NCBI GenBank assembly: GCA_050013255.1
Contig: JBEKFP010000001.1
Coordinates: 384,001-448,000, forward strand
DNA from: Candidatus Bathyarchaeia archaeon
Lineage (GTDB): Archaea; Thermoproteota; Bathyarchaeia; 40CM-2-53-6
Reading direction: 5' to 3'
DNA length: 64,000 nt
Positions 1,046 through 10,995 of the stretch are shown here, piece by piece. Both the position numbers and the translations under genes were made by a program. The notes beneath the pieces were generated by a model. That model saw nothing but the letters and a program-made list of their open reading frames with translations, ran no database searches and was not told where the DNA came from. Position 1 is the stretch's first letter; each line of letters starts with the position of its first letter.

Positions 1046-2194
1046 TCATAGGGTCGTCTGCTTGACCACACTTGCTAGCTTGGAAAGCAGCTTTAGCATC
1101 GGTCTGACGTGGGTCTTAGTCGTGAGATAGTGTTCCAAGGTACGTTCACGCCCGATCCGATCACGTAGGATCTCTGTCTCGTAGACTTGGCGCTCTGCGT
1201 TGAACGCTTTCTCAAGCTTCCGCAGTGTCTCATAGTCGGCCGGTTTTCGGAAGTGACCGGTTGAGATGATAGCATCCTTCTCTATCGGCAGATTCCGCAG
1301 CGAACTACCGCTAGCTACGTAATAGCCGTAGTCCGATCGGTTGAACAGTCGGATTGGAGGTTTCTCAGCTCGTTCCAATTTTCCGTACAGGTCGGGGGTA
1401 AGCTTGGGAGGCACGTGAGCTCTCCCAAAGCTATCAAATCCCATTTCAAATGTCAACATGTCCTTCGCCGGCTTGACGGGCTGACTTGCTAGTGCTCGAC
1501 CTTGTCCCACATTCAATCCGTGTAGGTAGGACGGCTCCCCAAAGTCGGCATCTAGTTTTCTTAGATATCTTAGCACGCGAGTTATGTTGGGCTGCAGGCG
1601 CAACGGGTGTCGTCCATGAAAATCCATCGAGAACAGGCTCACGCCACGTTGTTCGTAGAACTTTAGGATGCCATCAAGCTCTCTATGAGACACGTAGGGT
1701 ATAAGGCCCATAATTGGGCGATGATTGATAGTTTCGTATACCGTAAAGAACTGGTCTAGAAACTGGAGATAGCTCACTCCAGTCGAACCTTGTAGGATCG
1801 GTGGTACCAGGATATCTGCTCCTGCGATATTCATCAAGTCGAAGAGGTATTCAGTTTCTCTCCGAGACGGTGTGATTCCCTGGGGAGAGACATATGAGAA
1901 AAACACTACATTCAATGCATCAGGATGGGGGTTTCTCTGAATAGCGTTCACCAAACTTGAAGTGAACTGTTGTTGCTTCTGAAGGTCACCATCTATCTGA
2001 TGAAGAATCTTTGGCGTCACCGACCTGAATAACTCGTTAATGGATGCGGTTCTGACATTACGCGATTCACATTCAGCGCTTTGGGTTAAGTGAACCGCTC
2101 GAACCGGCGTCTGGATGGTCTTACTTCGGACTCGAAGTGTGAGGACTCGCGAGAGAAAACCCTTATCGGTTCTCTCGAGTTTAGAGTACTTCAT
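1046..2194 (-). CDS. Divergent tRNA-guanine transglycosylase (TGT)-fold protein
   Basis: SRVLTL...IQTP start, ADILVPP, IMGLIP, YLHGLNVG, MGFDSFG and C-terminal FNAE...LRDRI helix follow the TGT barrel motif order. The catalytic Asp residues and Zn ligands are not evident. Confidence 0.6.
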   Translation of the reverse strand: MKYSKLERTDKGFLSRVLTLRVRSKTIQTPVRAVHLTQSAECESRNVRTASINELFRSVTPKILHQIDGDLQKQQQFTSSLVNAIQRNPHPDALNVVFFSYVSPQGITPSRRETEYLFDLMNIAGADILVPPILQGSTGVSYLQFLDQFFTVYETINHRPIMGLIPYVSHRELDGILKFYEQRGVSLFSMDFHGRHPLRLQPNITRVLRYLRKLDADFGEPSYLHGLNVGQGRALASQPVKPAKDMLTFEMGFDSFGRAHVPPKLTPDLYGKLERAEKPPIRLFNRSDYGYYVASGSSLRNLPIEKDAIISTGHFRKPADYETLRKLEKAFNAERQVYETEILRDRIGRERTLEHYLTTKTHVRPMLKLLSKLASVVKQTTL

Positions 2195-2247
2195 CCTTCA
2201 TTCCTTAAATGCAGAATACCATCATGTTAAGCACATGGGGAATCAGG

Positions 2248-2883
2248 TTGTCAGCCGATGACTTAGACCCGGTAGAACGTTATTTGTTTTTGCTATTGTA
2301 TTCTCCTGGCCCTCGCGGCTCTGCTGGCGAACCGATAAAAGGGGACCTTTGGCTCCAAAAAGAACTGTTCCTAGTCTCACAAAACGTCGAGCCATTGCGC
2401 GAGGAATTCGAGGCTTACAGGCTAGGCCCATTTAGCGAAGCCGTCGAAGAATATGAATCGCAACTACGTGTTTCCCAATTCATCGATGTCGCGGCATCCG
2501 GAATACGACTCACCGAGAAAGGCCAGAGCATTGCCAAAGAGATTTGGGAATCCGCAGATGAAAAGGAACGACGCTTGATTATCTACGTGAAGCAACTCCT
2601 CAACGATCTGTCGCGAGACGAGCTTCTCGTGCTAATCTATTCTAGTTTCGAAGAGTCAACCGTCAACTCCGATATCAAAGCTGAGGTCGAAAGAAAGAGG
2701 AGTGATGTAGCCATCAGTCTATTTCGAAAACAGAAAGTGAGCTTGGAACGCGCCGCTAGGATCGCCCGCATGCCTGTTATGCATTTCGTGAAGTTTCTGA
2801 AGGCACGTGGCATCTCTGCTTATGAGCCAAGCGACGCCGAGCTGAAGGAAGAATTGCTTGGTGCCGATCCTAATCGTTACTGA
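2248..2883 (+). CDS. Antitoxin fusion: Panacea/DUF4065-YwgA-like domain + UPF0175 domain
   Basis: IKGDLWLQKELFL...AYRLGPFS N-terminal motif; C-terminal KVSLERAARIARMPVMHFVKFLKARGI. The ORF opens at 2209; TTG 2248 is the more likely start. Confidence 0.7.
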   Translation: MSADDLDPVERYLFLLLYSPGPRGSAGEPIKGDLWLQKELFLVSQNVEPLREEFEAYRLGPFSEAVEEYESQLRVSQFIDVAASGIRLTEKGQSIAKEIWESADEKERRLIIYVKQLLNDLSRDELLVLIYSSFEESTVNSDIKAEVERKRSDVAISLFRKQKVSLERAARIARMPVMHFVKFLKARGISAYEPSDAELKEELLGADPNRY

Positions 2884-3355
2884 TTGTTCAGTGATCAGCG
2901 CGTTCGTAGACATAGGGTGCCTCTCGAAGCTCAATCAACTTTTGATTGTCAAAAAGTGGAAGCTAGCGATTCCAGATCTTGTCCTTGACGAAATGAGTGG
3001 CAAGATTTCGCGACGGCAGCTAAGGAAGCGTCTGAAGTTCACGGTTCAGAGAACGCACGCCGCGAACATCAAGCGATTGAGAGCCCGCTACTTGTCACTT
3101 GGGGACGGCGAGCTAGCTGTGGTTTCCTATCTTTTGAGAAGACAATCGGGAGCGGCTTTAGCGGGGTTGGATGATCATACGGCCCGTAATGTCGCCCAGA
3201 CTTTGGGCGTGAAATATATCGGGACGCTGGGATTGCTTCGGTTGATGTACATTTCGCATATCATAAATCATGACGAAATGAGCTACTATTGCAAGGCACT
3301 AAGTAAAGTAGGATTCCATATTACGGAAACTCTGATCAAGAAAATCCTTGAGTGA
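2858..3355 (+). CDS. DUF3368 PIN-domain toxin (COG2405)
   Basis: VTDCSVI, LGDGELAVV, LDDHTARNVAQTLGVKYIGTLGLL; overlaps the UPF0175 gene. Confidence 0.85.
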   Translation: MVPILIVTDCSVISAFVDIGCLSKLNQLLIVKKWKLAIPDLVLDEMSGKISRRQLRKRLKFTVQRTHAANIKRLRARYLSLGDGELAVVSYLLRRQSGAALAGLDDHTARNVAQTLGVKYIGTLGLLRLMYISHIINHDEMSYYCKALSKVGFHITETLIKKILE

Positions 3356-3519: not shown

Positions 3520-5496
3520 TTGGTGGAACTAGTCTGGGATCGGAAGTACGATAAATCAGGAACCAAGACTGCCCCGGTTTCTGTAGCTCTGCCCTTCCAG
3601 ACAATTGAAACCCTAAACGAATCTACACAGCAACGTCAGAAGTCAATCGAATCGTTTCTCACGGGAAGAGGCGAAACAGAATGGCGAAACCGGCTCATAT
3701 GGGGCGACAAGAAATACGTTCTTCCTAGCCTCCTACCTGAATTCGCAAATTCAGTAGACCTAATCTACATCGACCCGCCATTCGGCACCGGTGCGGACTT
3801 CTCGTTCATTGCCACTGTGCCGGATGACCCCGACGCGACGGAGGGCGACTCGTTGGTCTTCACCAAGGAACCGAGCATCATAGAACAGAAGGCTTACCGT
3901 GATACCTGGGGCCATGGGTTGGATACCTATCTCCATTGGTTCTACGAAACGGCGGCGCTTCTCCATGAACTGCTCAATGATAGGGGAAGCATTTACGTAC
4001 ATCTCGACTCTGGCGTGAGTCATTACGCCAAGTTGATTCTTGACGAGGTATTTGGTGCGGAGCAGTTTGTCAACGAAATCGTCTGGCGTAGAGCGTTCGC
4101 ACATAATGACCCAGCTCGTTGCGGAATGATTCATGACGTCCTCCTCTTCTATTCAAAGACCGAAAGCCGCACATGGAATGATGTCTTACAGAAACCGAGC
4201 CGGGAATATGTCGAACAATTCTTTGACCAGTATGATGAGACCCGGAAGGAACGATATGAGCGACTTCCTCTAGACGCTCCCCGACACGGCGCCGGGGGAA
4301 ATCTTCTTTACGAATGGAAAGGCGTGTGGCCAGCAAAGAACCGAACATGGGCCGTCCAGAGAGAAAAAATGGAGGAGTACGATAGGGCTGGTAGAATCCA
4401 TTATCCGAAGAAAGGGATTCCCAGACTCAAACGGTACGAGAGCGAATATGAAGGCACAGTCCTTCAAGACATCTGGACCGACATTAACAAAATCCATAAT
4501 CAGTCTCCAGAACTCTTGCACTACCCGACACAGAAACCCGAAGCCCTTCTTGAGCGCATACTCAAAACTTCCTCGAATGAGGGTGACCTGGTGCTGGATT
4601 GTTTCGTGGGCAGCGGTACCACGGCTGCTGTGGCGGAGAAGTTGGGGCGGCGCTGGATCGTGTGTGACCTTAGCCGATTTGCGATCCACACGACTCGCAA
4701 ACGTCTTCTCAGCGTGGAGAACCTCAAACCATTTGTTATACAAAATTTGGGTAAGTACGAGCGTCAAGCTTGGCAGACCGCTGAATTCGGAGATGAAGCT
4801 GGAACAAAAGTTCGATCATACACCAGCTTTATTCTCAAATTGTATAATGCTCAACCTTTGAACGGATACATTTGGCTTCATGGGAAGAAAGGAGCCCGTC
4901 TTGTTCACGTAGGCTCAGTGGATTCACCCATTTCGCCTTTAGACGTCGGACAAATCGTTGCCGAATTCAAGCGTTCAATCGGGACGGGCAAGGAAGCCCC
5001 TAGAACGAATGGCGTCGACGTGTTAGGATGGGATTTCGCCTTTGAGTTGAATGAGCTGGCAAAGCAGCAAGTTGCTCAGGCTAACGTTGACTTGCGATTC
5101 TTGCGCATTCCACGTGAAGTGCTTGACAAGAAGGCCGTTGAACAAGGAGACGTTCGTTTCTTCGAACTAGCCTCATTGGATGTCGGAGTAAAGACTTCCG
5201 GAAAGAAAGCTACAGTCACTATCAAAGACTTTGTGATTCCAGCAGATGACGTGCCTTCTGATATCCAGAAAGAAATCAATCATTGGTCACAATGGATCGA
5301 TTATTGGGCGGTCGACTGGAACAACAAGAATGACACTTTCCACAATGAATGGCAAGAGTATCGTACACGGGAGAAGCCTAAGCTCGTAACGGAAACCTCC
5401 AAAACGTATGACGAGCACGGAGAATATCGTGTTGTTGTGAAAGTCATCGATATTCTCGGAAACGACACTACGAAATTGCTTCGGGTGAAGGTCTAG
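3520..5496 (+). CDS. mod: Type III R-M N6-adenine methyltransferase (Mod)
   Basis: IYIDPPF (motif IV) before YPTQKPE and DCFVGSGTT (motif I), beta-class order; stop overlaps the res start. Confidence 0.92.
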   Translation: MVELVWDRKYDKSGTKTAPVSVALPFQTIETLNESTQQRQKSIESFLTGRGETEWRNRLIWGDKKYVLPSLLPEFANSVDLIYIDPPFGTGADFSFIATVPDDPDATEGDSLVFTKEPSIIEQKAYRDTWGHGLDTYLHWFYETAALLHELLNDRGSIYVHLDSGVSHYAKLILDEVFGAEQFVNEIVWRRAFAHNDPARCGMIHDVLLFYSKTESRTWNDVLQKPSREYVEQFFDQYDETRKERYERLPLDAPRHGAGGNLLYEWKGVWPAKNRTWAVQREKMEEYDRAGRIHYPKKGIPRLKRYESEYEGTVLQDIWTDINKIHNQSPELLHYPTQKPEALLERILKTSSNEGDLVLDCFVGSGTTAAVAEKLGRRWIVCDLSRFAIHTTRKRLLSVENLKPFVIQNLGKYERQAWQTAEFGDEAGTKVRSYTSFILKLYNAQPLNGYIWLHGKKGARLVHVGSVDSPISPLDVGQIVAEFKRSIGTGKEAPRTNGVDVLGWDFAFELNELAKQQVAQANVDLRFLRIPREVLDKKAVEQGDVRFFELASLDVGVKTSGKKATVTIKDFVIPADDVPSDIQKEINHWSQWIDYWAVDWNNKNDTFHNEWQEYRTREKPKLVTETSKTYDEHGEYRVVVKVIDILGNDTTKLLRVKV

Positions 5497-8102
5497 TGAG
5501 AGTGAAAAACCGCAGAAGTTCGCAGGCTAGACTCGTTGCCTCAGAAGGTGAGTTGAAGCTCCTAGCTCCCGCGATCGGAACTGCACCCTGTGTTCCTGCC
5601 ATCAAGACCTCAGTGAACTCATGGATCAAGAGCGGTTACACCACTCCCGAAGGATGCACTGAAACAAGCAAAGCTTTGCTGAATTACTGGTTTCATTCTG
5701 ATCATCGACTGGCGAATGGTCGAGTTTTCGCATACAATACAGCCCAACATGAGGCAATGGAAACTCTCGTCTACCTGTATGAGGTGGCTAAGATACGACG
5801 CCAACGAACTATGCTTGAACAATACGCCGTGGAATCAAAGCATCTGCAACTACTGCAACACGACGACTTCGCCAGGTACTGTTTCAAAATGGCGACAGGC
5901 AGTGGCAAAACAAAGGTAATGGCTCTTGCAGTTGCCTGGCAATACTTTAACGCCATCATGGGGAACATTCCAGGCTATTCAAAAACGTCGCTCCTGATTG
6001 CTCCAAACGTAATCGTATTCGAGAGACTGCGATTAGACTTCGCCGGCGGCAGAATATTCCGTGCAGACCCAGTCATTCCTCCGGAGTTTGTGAATACTTG
6101 GGATTTTGAATGTTATATGCGAGGAGAAGCCGACCGTGCGCGTTCTGAGGGGGCGCTCTACCTTACCAACGTTCAACAACTGTACGACAGGCCAACCGAA
6201 GATGATGAACCTAAGGAGATGTCAGATGTTCTAGGCCGTAAACCGCCTTACGAGGGAAGCGAAATCGAGGATTTCATGTCGCGTTTGATCAGGCGAGTTG
6301 GACCAATCCTTGTAGTGAACGATGAAGCCCATCACACATGGGATGAAGAACTGAAATGGAACGATATCATTCGTGACTTGAACAGCAAGGTCACGAGAGG
6401 AGTAGGAGCCCAGCTCGATTTTTCGGCAACGCCCCGATTCAGTCATGGTGCGTTGTTCTCATGGACGATTTACGATTATCCTCTAAAACGAGCCATTGAA
6501 GATGGAATCGTCAAACGACCACTCAAAGGAGTAGCCTCGGGGATACATGAAGCTCGATCCAATACTGCAAGTACAAAGTACAGAGCCTATTTGACTGCCG
6601 GAGTAGAAAGATGGAGGGAATATCGAGAACAGCTCAAACCACTCAAGAAGAAGCCGATACTTTTTGTAATGATGAACAATACGGACGACGCAGACGAGGT
6701 TGGAGACTATCTCAGAACACATTATCAGGAAGAATTCGGAGCTGATAAACTTCTGGTTATACATACTGATAAAAAGGGCGAAGTTTCGAAACGTGATTTG
6801 GAAGTAGCCAGGCGAGTCGCGCGAGAAGTTGACTCTGAGACCAGTTCTGTGAATGCAATAGTAAGCGTGCTGATGCTTCGTGAAGGGTGGGACGTTCAGA
6901 ACGTTACCGTCGTCATTGGTCTTAGACCGTACACATCGAAGGCGAACATTCTACCAGAACAAACGATCGGAAGAGGACTTCGGTTAATGTTTCGTGACCT
7001 AGCCGGTGAATACCGTGAAAGAGTTGACGTGATTGGCAACAAGGCATTCATCAATTTCGTGGAGGATCTGGAGAAGGACGAGGGAACCAAGTTCGACACC
7101 TTCCAACTGGGTAAGGAAAAACTTGAGATCGTCACAATCATGGTCGATCCCAAGAAAGCGGATAAGGATATTGAAATTCCAGTCCTCAGCCCAATACTAG
7201 TCCGGAAAAAGTCTCTCTCTGAGGAAATATCGTCCTTAAACATTCGCACACTGAAATGCCCAAAGTTGCCAAAAAAGGAAACTGATCCCGAGACAGAGAC
7301 ATTTCGATATGAAGGCTACGATTTTCTCACGCTCAAGAAAGAAATAGAACGCCGGTATAAGATCCCTCAAGCTCAAACCGCTCAGGAAGTAATTTCCTAT
7401 TACGCCAAGGAGATTGCACAAGACGTCAAACTGCCTTCCCAATTCGCATACCTCGTCCCCAAGATTCGACAGTTCCTCGAAGAACGAGCGTTCGGAGAGA
7501 AGGTCAACCTCAACGACCCCGTAATTCTCAAGGCAATGAGCAGCAACGTCAGTCAGTACGTCGTAGTTCAGACATTCGTCAAAGCGCTCAGAGCGATAAT
7601 CGTCGAGGAACGCATCCCAGAAATTGCTGCACCACCACGAAGACTCTCCCAGACAGAACCCTTCGCCTACTCGAGACCAACATATCAAGCATCAAAATGC
7701 ATCTTCAATCGGGTACCATGCGACAACGAGTTCGAGGTAGAGTTCTCGAAACTCCTCCAATCATCCGATGAGGTCATCAGCTTCTCCAAACTACCATCAC
7801 GATTCGAGTTTTCAATCGAATACACCGATTCCGTCGCCAACTTGCGATACTACGAACCCGATTTCGTTGCGGTGCTGGAAAATGGTGAGCATTATCTAAT
7901 TGAGACTAAAGGGCGTGAAGACCCTGATGTGCCGCATAAGGATAGGGCTGCCAAACTCTGGTGTGACTACGCAACTGGCTTGACCCAAGTTAAGTGGCAG
8001 TATCTGAAGGTGCCGCAGCAAGACTTCAAGCGATTGGAGCCGGACGAGTTCTCCGACCTTAATGTCTTCAAATATGAGCAACAGACGCTGACCGCTGACT
8101 AG
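5496..8102 (+). CDS. res: Type III R-M restriction subunit (SF2 helicase + PD-(D/E)xK)
   Basis: MATGSGKT, DEAH, SAT, LREGWDV, QTIGRGLR, YEPDFV...IETKG. Confidence 0.92.
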   Translation: MRVKNRRSSQARLVASEGELKLLAPAIGTAPCVPAIKTSVNSWIKSGYTTPEGCTETSKALLNYWFHSDHRLANGRVFAYNTAQHEAMETLVYLYEVAKIRRQRTMLEQYAVESKHLQLLQHDDFARYCFKMATGSGKTKVMALAVAWQYFNAIMGNIPGYSKTSLLIAPNVIVFERLRLDFAGGRIFRADPVIPPEFVNTWDFECYMRGEADRARSEGALYLTNVQQLYDRPTEDDEPKEMSDVLGRKPPYEGSEIEDFMSRLIRRVGPILVVNDEAHHTWDEELKWNDIIRDLNSKVTRGVGAQLDFSATPRFSHGALFSWTIYDYPLKRAIEDGIVKRPLKGVASGIHEARSNTASTKYRAYLTAGVERWREYREQLKPLKKKPILFVMMNNTDDADEVGDYLRTHYQEEFGADKLLVIHTDKKGEVSKRDLEVARRVAREVDSETSSVNAIVSVLMLREGWDVQNVTVVIGLRPYTSKANILPEQTIGRGLRLMFRDLAGEYRERVDVIGNKAFINFVEDLEKDEGTKFDTFQLGKEKLEIVTIMVDPKKADKDIEIPVLSPILVRKKSLSEEISSLNIRTLKCPKLPKKETDPETETFRYEGYDFLTLKKEIERRYKIPQAQTAQEVISYYAKEIAQDVKLPSQFAYLVPKIRQFLEERAFGEKVNLNDPVILKAMSSNVSQYVVVQTFVKALRAIIVEERIPEIAAPPRRLSQTEPFAYSRPTYQASKCIFNRVPCDNEFEVEFSKLLQSSDEVISFSKLPSRFEFSIEYTDSVANLRYYEPDFVAVLENGEHYLIETKGREDPDVPHKDRAAKLWCDYATGLTQVKWQYLKVPQQDFKRLEPDEFSDLNVFKYEQQTLTAD

Positions 8103-8113
8103 ACACGCCACAA

Positions 8114-8842
8114 ATGCTATCTACGCATATCGCGCGATTTGGTGGCTTCGAAACATTTTCTTCAACTTTTGGGCGGAAGCATTTGGGAGTCAATATTAAT
8201 TCTGAAACTGCGGACGAATTGATCCGAGGCGTGACCCTGAAGATACGACAGAATGTGGAATCGGGCATCTCGCCGCTGTCGAGCGAGAGCACGTTCAGGT
8301 TTCTCTTCGCATGGGAATTAGGTAGAGCAAATGAATTTTCTCCCGACTATCGTTTCGATTTTGAATGGAACGCATATTCCAGCCTTGATAGCGAGGACAC
8401 ATTCTTGGATTTGCTCGTCTACACAGATCCAACGTTCAAAGTTGCTTTAGAATTCAAGCTTCCCAAGTCATCGGACTTTCACATGACCAACTCCACACAA
8501 ACGCGAGCAAAGATTTGCAGAGACATTTCGAGACTCAACTATCTGGTAAGAAAGCAGTTGAATTCGATACGTTTAGGATACTTCCTCTGCGCTACTAACG
8601 AAGGTGCATATCTTACGGAAGGTCGGAAAACAAGCAACATTCAGTATAAGACCTACAATGGAACTGCATACCAACCGAACGAGATGATCCCCAAAGGTAG
8701 GCCTCCAAACGGCATCCAGCGAGATCTATTGTTCCCGAACCATATTGTGCGGTTTGAATGGGAAGGGACTGAGTCTACCCGAAATCGACTCCAAATGAAG
8801 GGCAGATTCGCGTGGCTAACTCCGATAAGAATCTCGGGCTAG
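8114..8842 (+). CDS. PD-(D/E)xK restriction-endonuclease-like protein
   Basis: FLDLLV...VALEFKLP...CRDISRL; starts 11 bp after res. Confidence 0.6.
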   Translation: MLSTHIARFGGFETFSSTFGRKHLGVNINSETADELIRGVTLKIRQNVESGISPLSSESTFRFLFAWELGRANEFSPDYRFDFEWNAYSSLDSEDTFLDLLVYTDPTFKVALEFKLPKSSDFHMTNSTQTRAKICRDISRLNYLVRKQLNSIRLGYFLCATNEGAYLTEGRKTSNIQYKTYNGTAYQPNEMIPKGRPPNGIQRDLLFPNHIVRFEWEGTESTRNRLQMKGRFAWLTPIRISG

Positions 8843-9105: not shown

Positions 9106-10188
9106 ATGTCGGATAGTTTTCGAATTATTGCGACGACGGGACCGATGGAGAAAGTGTTGAAAGATGACCAAGGAAGACTTCTATCCTTTCCTGCGGTGAT
9201 GTATGAGTTCTATTCGTGGGACGCCCGCATATTCGCTGTAGAGCAAATCAAGCGGATCTTAGACAATCCTGCAACGTTCAATGGGTTGTCTAAAGAACTG
9301 CGCGACAAACTACGAGGCATTCTGGTCCTAGAGCTTGTGGCGAAATTCTGTGAAAGCTCCGAAGACCTCGCAGCGTTTGGCATTGCATTTGCGACGGAAC
9401 TGTACATGGACGCACTTGGCCCGGATGAGGTCTGGAAAAGAGTTGCGGAATACGAGACGGGAGACATTGTCAATTTCTATAGAGACATTACATTGAGAGG
9501 AGCAGATTACTTCGCGAACCTGCATGGATATCCACCTCTTCAACTTCAAGAAGATAACTCACGTATGATCCTATTTCGCTCCTGCAAGCAGTTAGCAGGG
9601 TACATGGGAACAGTTGCCCAGGCTTACATGAGTCTACGTGAACTTCATAACGCATACAAACATGGCATGAGGGTCTTCTTCGGAAGCTTGAGCGAAAAAG
9701 GCATAGAATCAATTGCAATTGCCTATGTCGACGCTGATGCAAACATCAAAGCCGTGAATTTTCCCCCCGAGTCGGTCGAAGAGGTTTACACGCTAGGGGT
9801 CCAATTAGGAAAGATCTTAGGAGCATTCTTGCAATGGCATAGTATTCGAATTCAGGTAACCAAAAAAGGCTCGATTTCGGTCTCCGCCCCGGTATTCGGT
9901 CACGGAAGCGACCTTGACAAAGGGTTGGGCATGCTCTTCTTCCCTACCTTATCAGAAACAAGAGCAACTCTTGTGAACGAAGCAGGGAAAGTTGCACTCG
10001 AACACGAAGCTGAGGTCGAAAAAATCGATCGCGGACATATTATAGCTGTTGATATCGACGCCCGAGAAATCCTTGCCTTCCACTCACCCAATCTCCGCGA
10101 CGTAATCTTTGAGTCATTCAAAGCGAGGCCCGGTGCAAGACTCGTCTTCCGCCGCATAACGAGTGATGGAAAGGTTGGGCCTTACTAG
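9106..10188 (+). CDS. HEPN-like protein with C-terminal DUF5678-like domain
   Basis: Helical protein with LRELHNAYKHG; C-terminal RGHIIAVDIDAREILA...RPGARLVFRRI. Confidence 0.45.
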   Translation: MSDSFRIIATTGPMEKVLKDDQGRLLSFPAVMYEFYSWDARIFAVEQIKRILDNPATFNGLSKELRDKLRGILVLELVAKFCESSEDLAAFGIAFATELYMDALGPDEVWKRVAEYETGDIVNFYRDITLRGADYFANLHGYPPLQLQEDNSRMILFRSCKQLAGYMGTVAQAYMSLRELHNAYKHGMRVFFGSLSEKGIESIAIAYVDADANIKAVNFPPESVEEVYTLGVQLGKILGAFLQWHSIRIQVTKKGSISVSAPVFGHGSDLDKGLGMLFFPTLSETRATLVNEAGKVALEHEAEVEKIDRGHIIAVDIDAREILAFHSPNLRDVIFESFKARPGARLVFRRITSDGKVGPY

Positions 10189-10392: not shown

Positions 10393-10995
10393 TTGAAACC
10401 TGGAGGTGGGCGGAGAGCGTTGAAGGGTTCTTTCGGCGGTAAGGTCGAGAACGAAAATTCCGGTAATGTACGTAGTTTTTCGGTTCAGCTTCCAGCTAAC
10501 GTAACTGACTGGGTGGGGAAGGCTGCGGTTAGGAAGGAGAAAACGCCCGAGCAGTTTCTGCGGGAACTGATAATCACAAGCATAGAGGAAGAAGCCATGC
10601 CCCTAACGCTCCGGCTTCAGCGGCTCGACGAACTCGTCAAGAAAATGCAGGTAACAGTGAAGAAGACGCCCATGCAGGAAGAGAAGGACGCCAAGACGCA
10701 TGTCCACTCTTTAGAGGAACGAACTAAGAGACGGGAACACCTAATCGAACTAGGCCTAGAAGCCTACGACGAACTGAAGAAGATCGCAGCATCGGAGCAG
10801 GCTTCTAAAAGATCGAAGTCCCGCCTCCAAGCATTCGCCGTGATGGCCCGCATCGGCACATTCAACGCCGCCGTAATCCGCGACGCCGAAAACGACGAGT
10901 TAGGCACCCTCCTAGCCGAAGTAGAGGAGACAAATGAACAGTTCAAGGAGGAACTGGGAAAACTAGAGAAAAAGCGGCGTGAAGAGAAAGCATAG
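10393..10995 (+). CDS. RHH-domain + coiled-coil hypothetical protein (MGE-type)
   Basis: FSVQLPANVTDWV...PEQFLRELI RHH-like segment followed by long charged helices; start uncertain. Confidence 0.55.
   Translation: MKPGGGRRALKGSFGGKVENENSGNVRSFSVQLPANVTDWVGKAAVRKEKTPEQFLRELIITSIEEEAMPLTLRLQRLDELVKKMQVTVKKTPMQEEKDAKTHVHSLEERTKRREHLIELGLEAYDELKKIAASEQASKRSKSRLQAFAVMARIGTFNAAVIRDAENDELGTLLAEVEETNEQFKEELGKLEKKRREEKA

Follow-up and report, generated by a model that had tools for sequence, protein, structure and literature searches.

A predicted zinc-less protein of the TGT structural superfamily in a patchily distributed, mostly archaeal cassette with toxin–antitoxin-like genes

The beginning of a 64,000-nucleotide stretch of the genome of a Candidatus Bathyarchaeia archaeon (GenBank assembly GCA_050013255.1, contig JBEKFP010000001.1, positions 384,001 to 448,000; hereafter referred to as the window) raises the question of what role a protein that resembles tRNA-guanine transglycosylase (TGT), but lacks its canonical catalytic residues, may play beside a pair of toxin–antitoxin (TA)-like genes. 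An initial annotation, made from the sequence alone, had placed this protein, here designated P0001, at the head of a defence island and had described it as a TGT-fold protein with an altered active site. In the present analysis, its gene was found to be an integral part of a self-contained, patchily distributed, mobile three-gene cassette, most members of which are archaeal. The structural model of P0001 is that of a divergent, zinc-less member of the TGT superfamily, and its predicted contact with the antitoxin-like protein suggests, tentatively, that it may act as an additional effector kept inactive by that antitoxin. The cassette in the window is composed of the following features.

1046..2194, minus strand: gene for the predicted TGT-fold protein P0001 (382 aa; open reading frame and translation)
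2195..2208, no strand assigned: divergent intergenic spacer of 14 nt, or of 29 nt if the antitoxin-like gene starts at the ATG at 2224
2209..2883, plus strand: antitoxin-like gene (224 aa) with a Panacea (SocA/DUF4065)-like N-terminus, a winged-helix region and a C-terminal UPF0175 helix-turn-helix (HTH) domain
2858..3355, plus strand: gene for a PIN-like toxin of the COG2405/DUF3368 type (165 aa), overlapping the end of the antitoxin-like gene by 26 nt

An exhaustive search with P0001 returned 302 clusters at 50% identity, 183 of which had E values below 1e-10, so the open reading frame (ORF) at 1046..2194 cannot be attributed to chance and, as judged from sequence conservation, represents a real, conserved gene. 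The 18 relatives in the 90%-clustered collection and all others are either unnamed or annotated just as ‘hypothetical’. No matches to P0001 were found in Pfam, NCBIfam or PADLOC at E values up to 10, and the TGT family model PF01702 was matched neither by P0001 at E 10 nor by any of 16 relatives. Searches of the PDB sequences by phmmer and with two profiles yielded nothing significant; the weak matches obtained (KDG aldolase, DARPins and MJ1311) were dismissed for that reason. PHROGs contained no match for any of the three cassette proteins. Longer, fused forms of P0001 were searched for and none was found, which is weak evidence.

Contigs that carry relatives encode, as the window does, a UPF0175 protein of about 200 aa and a DUF3368 PIN-like protein of about 165 aa beside the TGT-like gene. 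To place the gene in its genomic context, 28 further genomic loci were fetched, nearly all of them archaeal (Bathyarchaeia, Nitrososphaeria, ANME-2/Methanoperedens and DPANN), with two from bacterial metagenome-assembled genomes. Clustering of all ORFs from 32 loci revealed only three recurrent gene families. An antitoxin-like gene adjoins the TGT-like gene in all 28 loci in which the flank is present, and a toxin gene is also present in all 28; the four loci without an antitoxin-like gene are cut at the contig end. In the commonest arrangement, the antitoxin, PIN and TGT-like genes follow one another in this order on the same strand, their ends overlapping. In the window, L001/L002 and L005–L010, the TGT-like gene is transcribed divergently, and in L003 and one viral contig it comes first. 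The pairwise distance matrices of the three cassette proteins are strongly correlated (r 0.85–0.89, with 0 of 999 permutations as high), which indicates that the cassette is inherited as a unit. A complete triad resides on a 32-kb predicted viral contig (IMGVR_UViG_3300025546_000003; L090:5995-8267), 2.5 kb from a phage portal gene (PF06381, E 2e-32; L090:10811-12286).

Among 401 sampled genomes of the phylum to which the window belongs, the TGT-like gene was detected in 21, distributed over 18 of 162 genera, and some of these copies are fragments or carry stop codons. At each of the 16 good TGT-like places in this sample, an antitoxin-like match lies within 0.9 kb. The dependence runs one way only, and some antitoxin-like genes have no TGT-like gene beside them; these are in part paired with PIN genes and in part decayed copies beside transposases. 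These data show that the TGT-like gene belongs to the cassette as an integral component.

Several additional loci showed variations of this organization. Two Methanoperedens contigs (L013:2484-4675 and L014:2267-4458) carry, some 3 kb upstream of the first triad, an additional paralogous one that consists of genes for a 407-aa TGT-like protein, a 163-aa Panacea/winged-HTH-like protein with no clear UPF0175 part and a PF01850 PIN. The ORFs of about 320–390 aa that lie beside lone antitoxin-like genes were examined as candidates for hidden TGT-like members, and none qualified (hhalign probability ≤1.2%); several of them are transposases, AbiEii or unrelated enzymes. At L069:4105-7128 (G012:C1, ~8.1–11.1 kb), a close relative of the antitoxin-like protein (E 5e-60) is encoded with no adjoining PIN or TGT-like gene and is followed by two ORFs (386 and 374 aa); neither of them is TGT-like by hhalign, and the 386-aa one has no Pfam match. 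These ORFs may be alternative partners of the same type of antitoxin.

The fold of P0001 was predicted with AlphaFold2 (AF2) from an alignment of 134 full-length relatives (alignment A2), and the resulting model had a pLDDT of 95.2 and a pTM of 0.94. An earlier AF2 model built from 16 close relatives (pLDDT 67.5, with residues 230–310 unmodelled) had given marginal TGT matches and was superseded by the 134-sequence model. In a Foldseek search against the PDB, which the initial annotation had proposed as a check against TGT and DpdA, the best matches of the final model were all to TGT or QTRT1 (E 1e-9, TM ~0.6, over the whole length). Independent VIA alignment against representative structures ranked ArcTGT (1IQ8) first (Z 23.8, root-mean-square deviation 3.7, 320 residues), followed by bacterial TGT (Z 22.5) and QTRT2 (Z 19.6); Cap10 (Z 16.5) and DpdA (Z 16.2) were more distant, and other TIM barrels did not exceed Z 12.9. 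The ESM Atlas model of P0001 likewise reached the TGT and TgtA clusters (TM 0.68–0.69). At the sequence level, profile–profile comparison with 30 ArcTGTs by hhalign gave a local probability of no more than 46%.

The modelled architecture shares with TGTs (1IQ8, bacterial TGT and QTRT1; PF01702) an N-terminal sheet of three strands, a TP motif ahead of barrel strand 1, a (β/α)8 barrel, a β-hairpin and C-terminal helices, and it is collinear with them over about 320 residues (Z 22–24), with FN332 pairing with the HN of the zinc site. The TGT fold that had been claimed from motifs is thus borne out by the AF2 model and its structural matches. Unlike TGTs, P0001 has no PF01702 membership, zinc site, DSG, base-binding Asp or nucleophile Asp, and also lacks the PUA and C-terminal domains; moreover, TGTs are universal, whereas P0001 is accessory, patchy and TA-linked. 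Because the sequence model, the catalytic Asp and the zinc site are all wanting, P0001 falls outside the TGT family proper, although its model places it within the structural superfamily and nearer to the tRNA TGTs than to DpdA. The earlier conclusion that P0001 is not a tRNA TGT, and not a canonical DpdA either, is supported by the fold together with the loss of the zinc site and of the Asp residues.

The translation contains ADILVPP (126–132), GFDSFGR (252–258) and FN (331–332), has C42 as its single Cys, and includes neither DSGG nor CxCxxC; in all of these respects the motifs read in the initial annotation, including FN in place of HN, were found as described. In the family alignment, the share of Cys stays at or below 23% in every column, which indicates that the zinc site CxCxxC...H is absent in the P0001 family as a whole. 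F331–N332 is the sole sequence stretch that is confidently aligned with ArcTGT; it pairs with the zinc-ligand HN, and F331 occupies the position of the zinc-ligand His.

The positions of the canonical Asp residues, which are the catalytic nucleophile D280 together with D102 and D156 in the Z. mobilis enzyme, were mapped by topology and by profile alignment. Two registers were considered, because the repeats of the barrel allow profile alignments to slip by one β-α unit. In register A, which follows the topology, eight regular β-α units occupy residues 31–275 and are followed by the hairpin at 282–293; the order and spacing of the elements follow ArcTGT, the alignments with the small barrels CutC and PA4872 stay within model residues 29–262, and G257 falls at the nucleophile position. 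In register B, which is derived from hhalign and from alignment through a zinc-retaining paralogue (described below), N285 takes this position. The full-length hhalign alignment of P0001 with ArcTGT changes register part-way, and a region-limited comparison (P0001 residues 215–300 versus ArcTGT) was uninformative (probability ~1%). We consider register A the more probable of the two. The Gly previously placed at the nucleophile site holds under register A, whereas register B has N285 there. In the family, G257 is Gly in 94% of sequences, and position 285 is Asn in 49% and Asp in 22%. The candidates for D102 (V102/S103 or G136) and for D156 (I133/L134 or I165/P166) include no conserved Asp. Whichever register is used, all three canonical TGT Asp residues are absent from P0001 and are not conserved in its family, and the reported absence of the nucleophile and base-binding Asp therefore holds in either case.

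A different set of residues is strongly conserved: E54 (99%), N228 (96%), D191 (92%), D245 (91%), H260 (90%) and D254 (87%), as well as the near-invariant R282, Y289, Y291, N332, E339 and K360. T29–P30, D127, P132, P166 and G257 are also conserved in the family. Since nearly invariant polar residues occur in place of the canonical Asp, P0001 has, judging from its sequence family, the look of a working barrel whose site has changed, and not that of a decayed TGT.

The antitoxin-like protein is composed of two recognizable parts. Its C-terminus matches Pfam UPF0175 (E 7e-13, residues 158–216), and its N-terminal 150 residues carry the motif IKGxxWxQKExF...FE....GPxSE in an alignment of its relatives (alignment A3). 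By hhalign, residues 43–147 align with 12 archaeal Panacea proteins (probability 92.7%, E 4e-7, 101 columns); direct matches to Pfam Panacea (PF13274) were weak and below the cut-off, occurring in 4 of 23 antitoxin members with a best E value of 0.002. PADLOC matches of this protein were PDC-M19A (1e-9) and the C-terminal part of DarG (3e-4), both obtained with its N-terminal part, and PDC-S70 (7e-7). The Panacea-like N-terminal domain, which proved to be the predicted contact partner of P0001, was not recognized in the initial annotation. Panacea is an experimentally established, promiscuous domain that neutralizes diverse toxins by direct binding (PMC8832971).

The PIN-like protein matches PADLOC PDC-S70 (E 3e-17) and, weakly, Pfam PIN_12 and DUF3368, and E45, E85 and D105 are invariant across 27 cassette PINs. 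In the window pair, a UPF0175 gene adjoins a COG2405/DUF3368 PIN gene, as in the PDC-S70 type; such UPF0175–COG2405 pairs were predicted to be TA systems in 2009 and 2017 (PMC2701414, PMC5499597). In two Bathyarchaeota/Gagatemarchaeum loci, the PIN is swapped for a ParE-family toxin (L005:5395-5721, minus strand, Pfam E 2e-7; L007:6932-7243, minus strand, E 2.5e-11), and the antitoxin-like and TGT-like genes remain. The toxin is thus exchangeable, being usually a DUF3368 PIN and otherwise a ParE-like protein or a PF01850 PIN, and the TGT-like/antitoxin pair is constant.

Prediction of a complex between the TGT-like protein (A2) and the antitoxin-like protein (A3) gave a score of 0.77, compared with 0.20 for the best of three controls. 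Of 80 solved complexes, 58 reached this mark, as did 2 of 110 mismatched pairs; both counts apply only approximately here, because our own alignments were used. Contact agreement in the complex runs was at least 61%, and the pLDDT of the partner was at least 76. On the barrel side, the contacts involve residues 136–139, 167–172, 195–203 and 233, which lie in the loops that follow four successive strands of the barrel; on the antitoxin side, they involve residues 20, 23, 77–91 and 108, all within the Panacea-like domain. The face formed by the loops that follow the barrel strands is the substrate-binding face of TIM-barrel enzymes, TGT included. The predicted contacts support a model in which the Panacea-like domain docks on the TGT-like barrel at its C-terminal, catalytic face. 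To our knowledge, no complex of a TGT-like protein with a Panacea antitoxin has been solved, and recall of a known structure by the predictor is therefore unlikely.

These results suggest, as the reading that we tentatively favour, that the cassette encodes a second effector, the TGT-like protein, which is restrained by the Panacea-like domain of the antitoxin. In the resting cell, this domain would occlude the substrate face of the barrel, and the UPF0175 part would handle the PIN or ParE-like toxin and would probably repress the divergent promoters. A spacer of only 14–29 nt means that the promoters, and an operator if there is one, must extend into the beginnings of the genes; a scan for bacterial-type promoters and terminators, which is ill-suited to an archaeon, gave sites no commoner than in shuffled sequence. 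The initial annotation had described P0001 as divergently transcribed from the TA block at a distance of about 50 bp; the divergence is correct, and the distance is 14 nt to the ATG at 2209 or 29 nt to that at 2224. Loss of the labile antitoxin, by cassette loss, stress or virus infection, would then free both effectors. The TGT-like effector would keep the TGT scaffold to grip a nucleobase of RNA or tRNA, and would either perform another chemistry or merely sequester its target; one speculative possibility is base flipping by a scaffold whose new acid/His set would allow it to excise a tRNA or rRNA base or to trap it. The fuller form of this proposal, that the TGT barrel has been repurposed as a nucleobase-acting toxin (by excision or sequestration) and that one Panacea–UPF0175 antitoxin holds two unrelated effectors, is put forward with somewhat greater reserve.

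Several points weigh against the effector proposal. The toxicity and activity of P0001 are hypothetical and its binding is predicted, the score of the complex expressing only the model's own confidence. For the residue-level map of the active site, topology and profile alignments give two different registers. A protein of 382 aa is large for a type II toxin, and the divergence of the TGT-like gene from the antitoxin gene in about one-third of the loci, including the window, is unusual for a toxin. The one-way dependence of the TGT-like gene on the antitoxin-like gene is as compatible with an accessory gene or a sensor as it is with a toxin. In addition, two-gene Panacea–UPF0175 and PIN pairs without a TGT-like gene exist (L070 and L073), which implies that the Panacea-like domain has some role independent of the TGT-like protein.

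The strongest competing explanation, which we regard as possible but rather doubtful, is that P0001 acts as a sensor or trigger. Seated on the antitoxin, the barrel would bind a ligand or nucleic acid (for example, a modified base, a fragment of tRNA or a molecule of viral origin), and the ligand at the barrel face would alter or break the contact, so that the antitoxin is destabilized or the toxin displaced; the PIN or ParE-like protein would be the sole effector. A sensor and an enzyme with new chemistry were both suggested for P0001 in the initial annotation, and both are possible functions. An interchangeable toxin module beside a constant TGT-like/antitoxin pair fits the sensor model well and resembles the antitoxin-tied accessory parts of toxin–antitoxin–chaperone (TAC) systems. 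Elsewhere, Panacea–UPF0175 and PIN pairs act as units of two genes. A sensor would also agree with the loss of the canonical catalytic residues and with a predicted contact at the ligand-binding face, and in Cap10 there is a precedent, a TGT-fold protein that regulates a defence effector. However, about 20 near-invariant polar residues (E54, D191, D254, H260 and others) look enzyme-like, although a binding pocket could conserve them too, and the cassette is linked to no candidate ligand pathway. Furthermore, Panacea domains are known as direct neutralizers of toxins and not as docks for sensors (PMC8832971).

It is less likely that P0001 is a non-catalytic scaffold or chaperone, comparable to QTRT2 or to SecB in TAC systems, which just stabilizes or assembles the antitoxin–toxin complex. 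QTRT2, a non-catalytic paralogue of TGT, was the third-best structural match, and the complex prediction supports binding of the antitoxin. The lost catalytic Asp and zinc site also agree with a scaffold, but QTRT2 keeps its zinc site and the P0001 family does not, and a passive scaffold would not be expected to keep charged and polar residues so constant throughout the family at the strand ends and in the hairpin at 282–293.

The genes that follow the cassette in the window bear on a further alternative, in which P0001 would be a DpdA-like DNA modifier. They are as follows.

3520-8102, plus strand: Type III restriction-modification (R-M) pair, directly downstream of the PIN gene
8114-8842, 9106-10188 and 10393-10995, plus strand: ORFs of 242, 360 and 200 aa, respectively, downstream of the R-M pair, with no significant Pfam or PADLOC match

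The Mod protein (658 aa) of the Type III pair contains an N6_N4_Mtase domain and matches PADLOC MTase_III (E 2.5e-102), and the Res protein (868 aa) contains ResIII and an endonuclease domain. No homologues of this Mod and Res were found in the other 31 cassette loci examined, which suggests that the R-M link is incidental. Thus, the view that P0001 heads a defence island tied to both the TA genes and the Type III R-M system was not sustained, as its constant partners are just the two TA-like genes. DpdA is a DNA preQ0 insertase tied to genome-conflict systems, and it is encoded in dpd clusters together with the genes for preQ0 synthesis. A DpdA-like modifier partnered with the adjacent R-M system is very improbable here: DpdA (PDB 7UI4) is a structural relative sharing the TGT-superfamily fold, and the Type III Mod and Res pair is only 1.3 kb away, but that pair is not a recurrent neighbour, P0001 is closer to the tRNA TGTs, the Asp needed for base exchange is not conserved in its family, and no dpdB/C-like or preQ0 genes lie nearby (dpdB and dpdC were not specifically searched for). 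In agreement with the earlier statement that queC and queD are not in the window, both genes (C1:536-538 kb) are located about 90 kb past its end.

Least probable of all is a housekeeping tRNA-modification paralogue of ArcTGT, for which the TGT fold and a genome that makes preQ0 (queC and queD present) could be cited, since the same genome has a full ArcTGT (528-aa ORF, 278 bits), and the P0001 family, without a PF01702 match even at E 10, is restricted to so few of the sampled genomes, decayed copies among them, and always adjoins TA-like genes.

Known systems related to the effector proposal share some features of the cassette and differ in others. TGT-fold enzymes exchange bases in tRNA (TGT and ArcTGT) and in DNA (DpdA). 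Cap10 of type IV CBASS (cyclic oligonucleotide-based antiphage signalling system; PDB 9NTN) has a zinc-less TGT fold and binds a partner protein through remodelled surfaces and its active site; it keeps the nucleobase-reading D73, S74 and D122 and a catalytic Asp/His pair, works with the QueC-like Cap9 and a CD-NTase, and was recently shown to handle a nucleobase–protein conjugate (bioRxiv 10.1101/2025.04.06.647259). P0001 resembles Cap10 in having a predicted zinc-less TGT fold in a conflict-type gene set, but it lacks the nucleobase-reading and catalytic residues of Cap10, and its predicted partner is the Panacea-like domain of an antitoxin. No CD-NTase or QueC-like gene is among the three families that recur around the TGT-like gene.

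With the UPF0175 (COG2886)–COG2405/DUF3368 PIN pairs of the PDC-S70 type, the cassette shares the antitoxin-then-toxin order and the overlapping ends, and it differs from them by its third gene for a 380-aa predicted TGT-fold protein. UPF0175 antitoxins have been described as ‘small proteins’ (PMC2701414); unlike these classical antitoxins, for which the Pfam model has 75 positions, the cassette antitoxin has an additional Panacea-like and winged-helix N-terminus of about 150 aa. The cassette is similar to the PanA–PanT systems (PMC8832971, PMC10440598) with respect to the Panacea-like N-domain of the antitoxin, the promiscuous toxin swaps and the predicted contact with an adjacent large protein, whereas its Panacea similarity is remote, the domain is fused to UPF0175 and there are two candidate effectors per cassette. 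A TGT-like third gene or partner is not mentioned in the main text of PMC2701414, PMC5499597, PMC8832971 or PMC10440598 (NetFlax), and a literature search combining TGT-like proteins with toxin–antitoxin returned only an unrelated paper on phage 9g and no description of the cassette. The UPF0175/PIN pair is, accordingly, an already known predicted TA type, and the Panacea fusion and the obligatory third gene, with its predicted TGT fold, appear to be new. A fourth TGT branch that is zinc-less, Asp-less and hard-wired to a TA pair in several archaeal phyla would bring this scaffold into the biology of TA systems and abortive infection, and the cassette would give initial access to a three-component system that is widespread in archaea, as well as adding an archaeal example to the Panacea theme of promiscuous antitoxin domains.

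The zinc-retaining paralogue through which register B was aligned is a distant relative encoded in the same genome (L063:1456-2592, plus strand; G000:C2, ~321.1–322.3 kb). This 378-aa protein matches A2 with an hhalign probability of 97.6%, keeps CxCxxC and the His, and has no Pfam match. Its gene adjoins those for prefoldin beta and DUF3194, not TA genes, and its family is highly conserved, with many relatives of 70–90% identity that are all annotated as ‘hypothetical’. It looks like an uncharacterized core-genome protein of the TGT superfamily and a possible evolutionary intermediate.

The G+C content over the first 10 kb of the window (0.47–0.51) is slightly lower than that of much of the remainder, which is consistent with an accessory region, and no tRNA genes, which could have marked an integration site, were found within the window. 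Outside the window, the sole QueD/PTPS match of the genome (L076, G000:C1:536448-536768) lies beside an intact queC and contains one in-frame TGA, which could reflect a sequencing error, a pseudogene or recoding.

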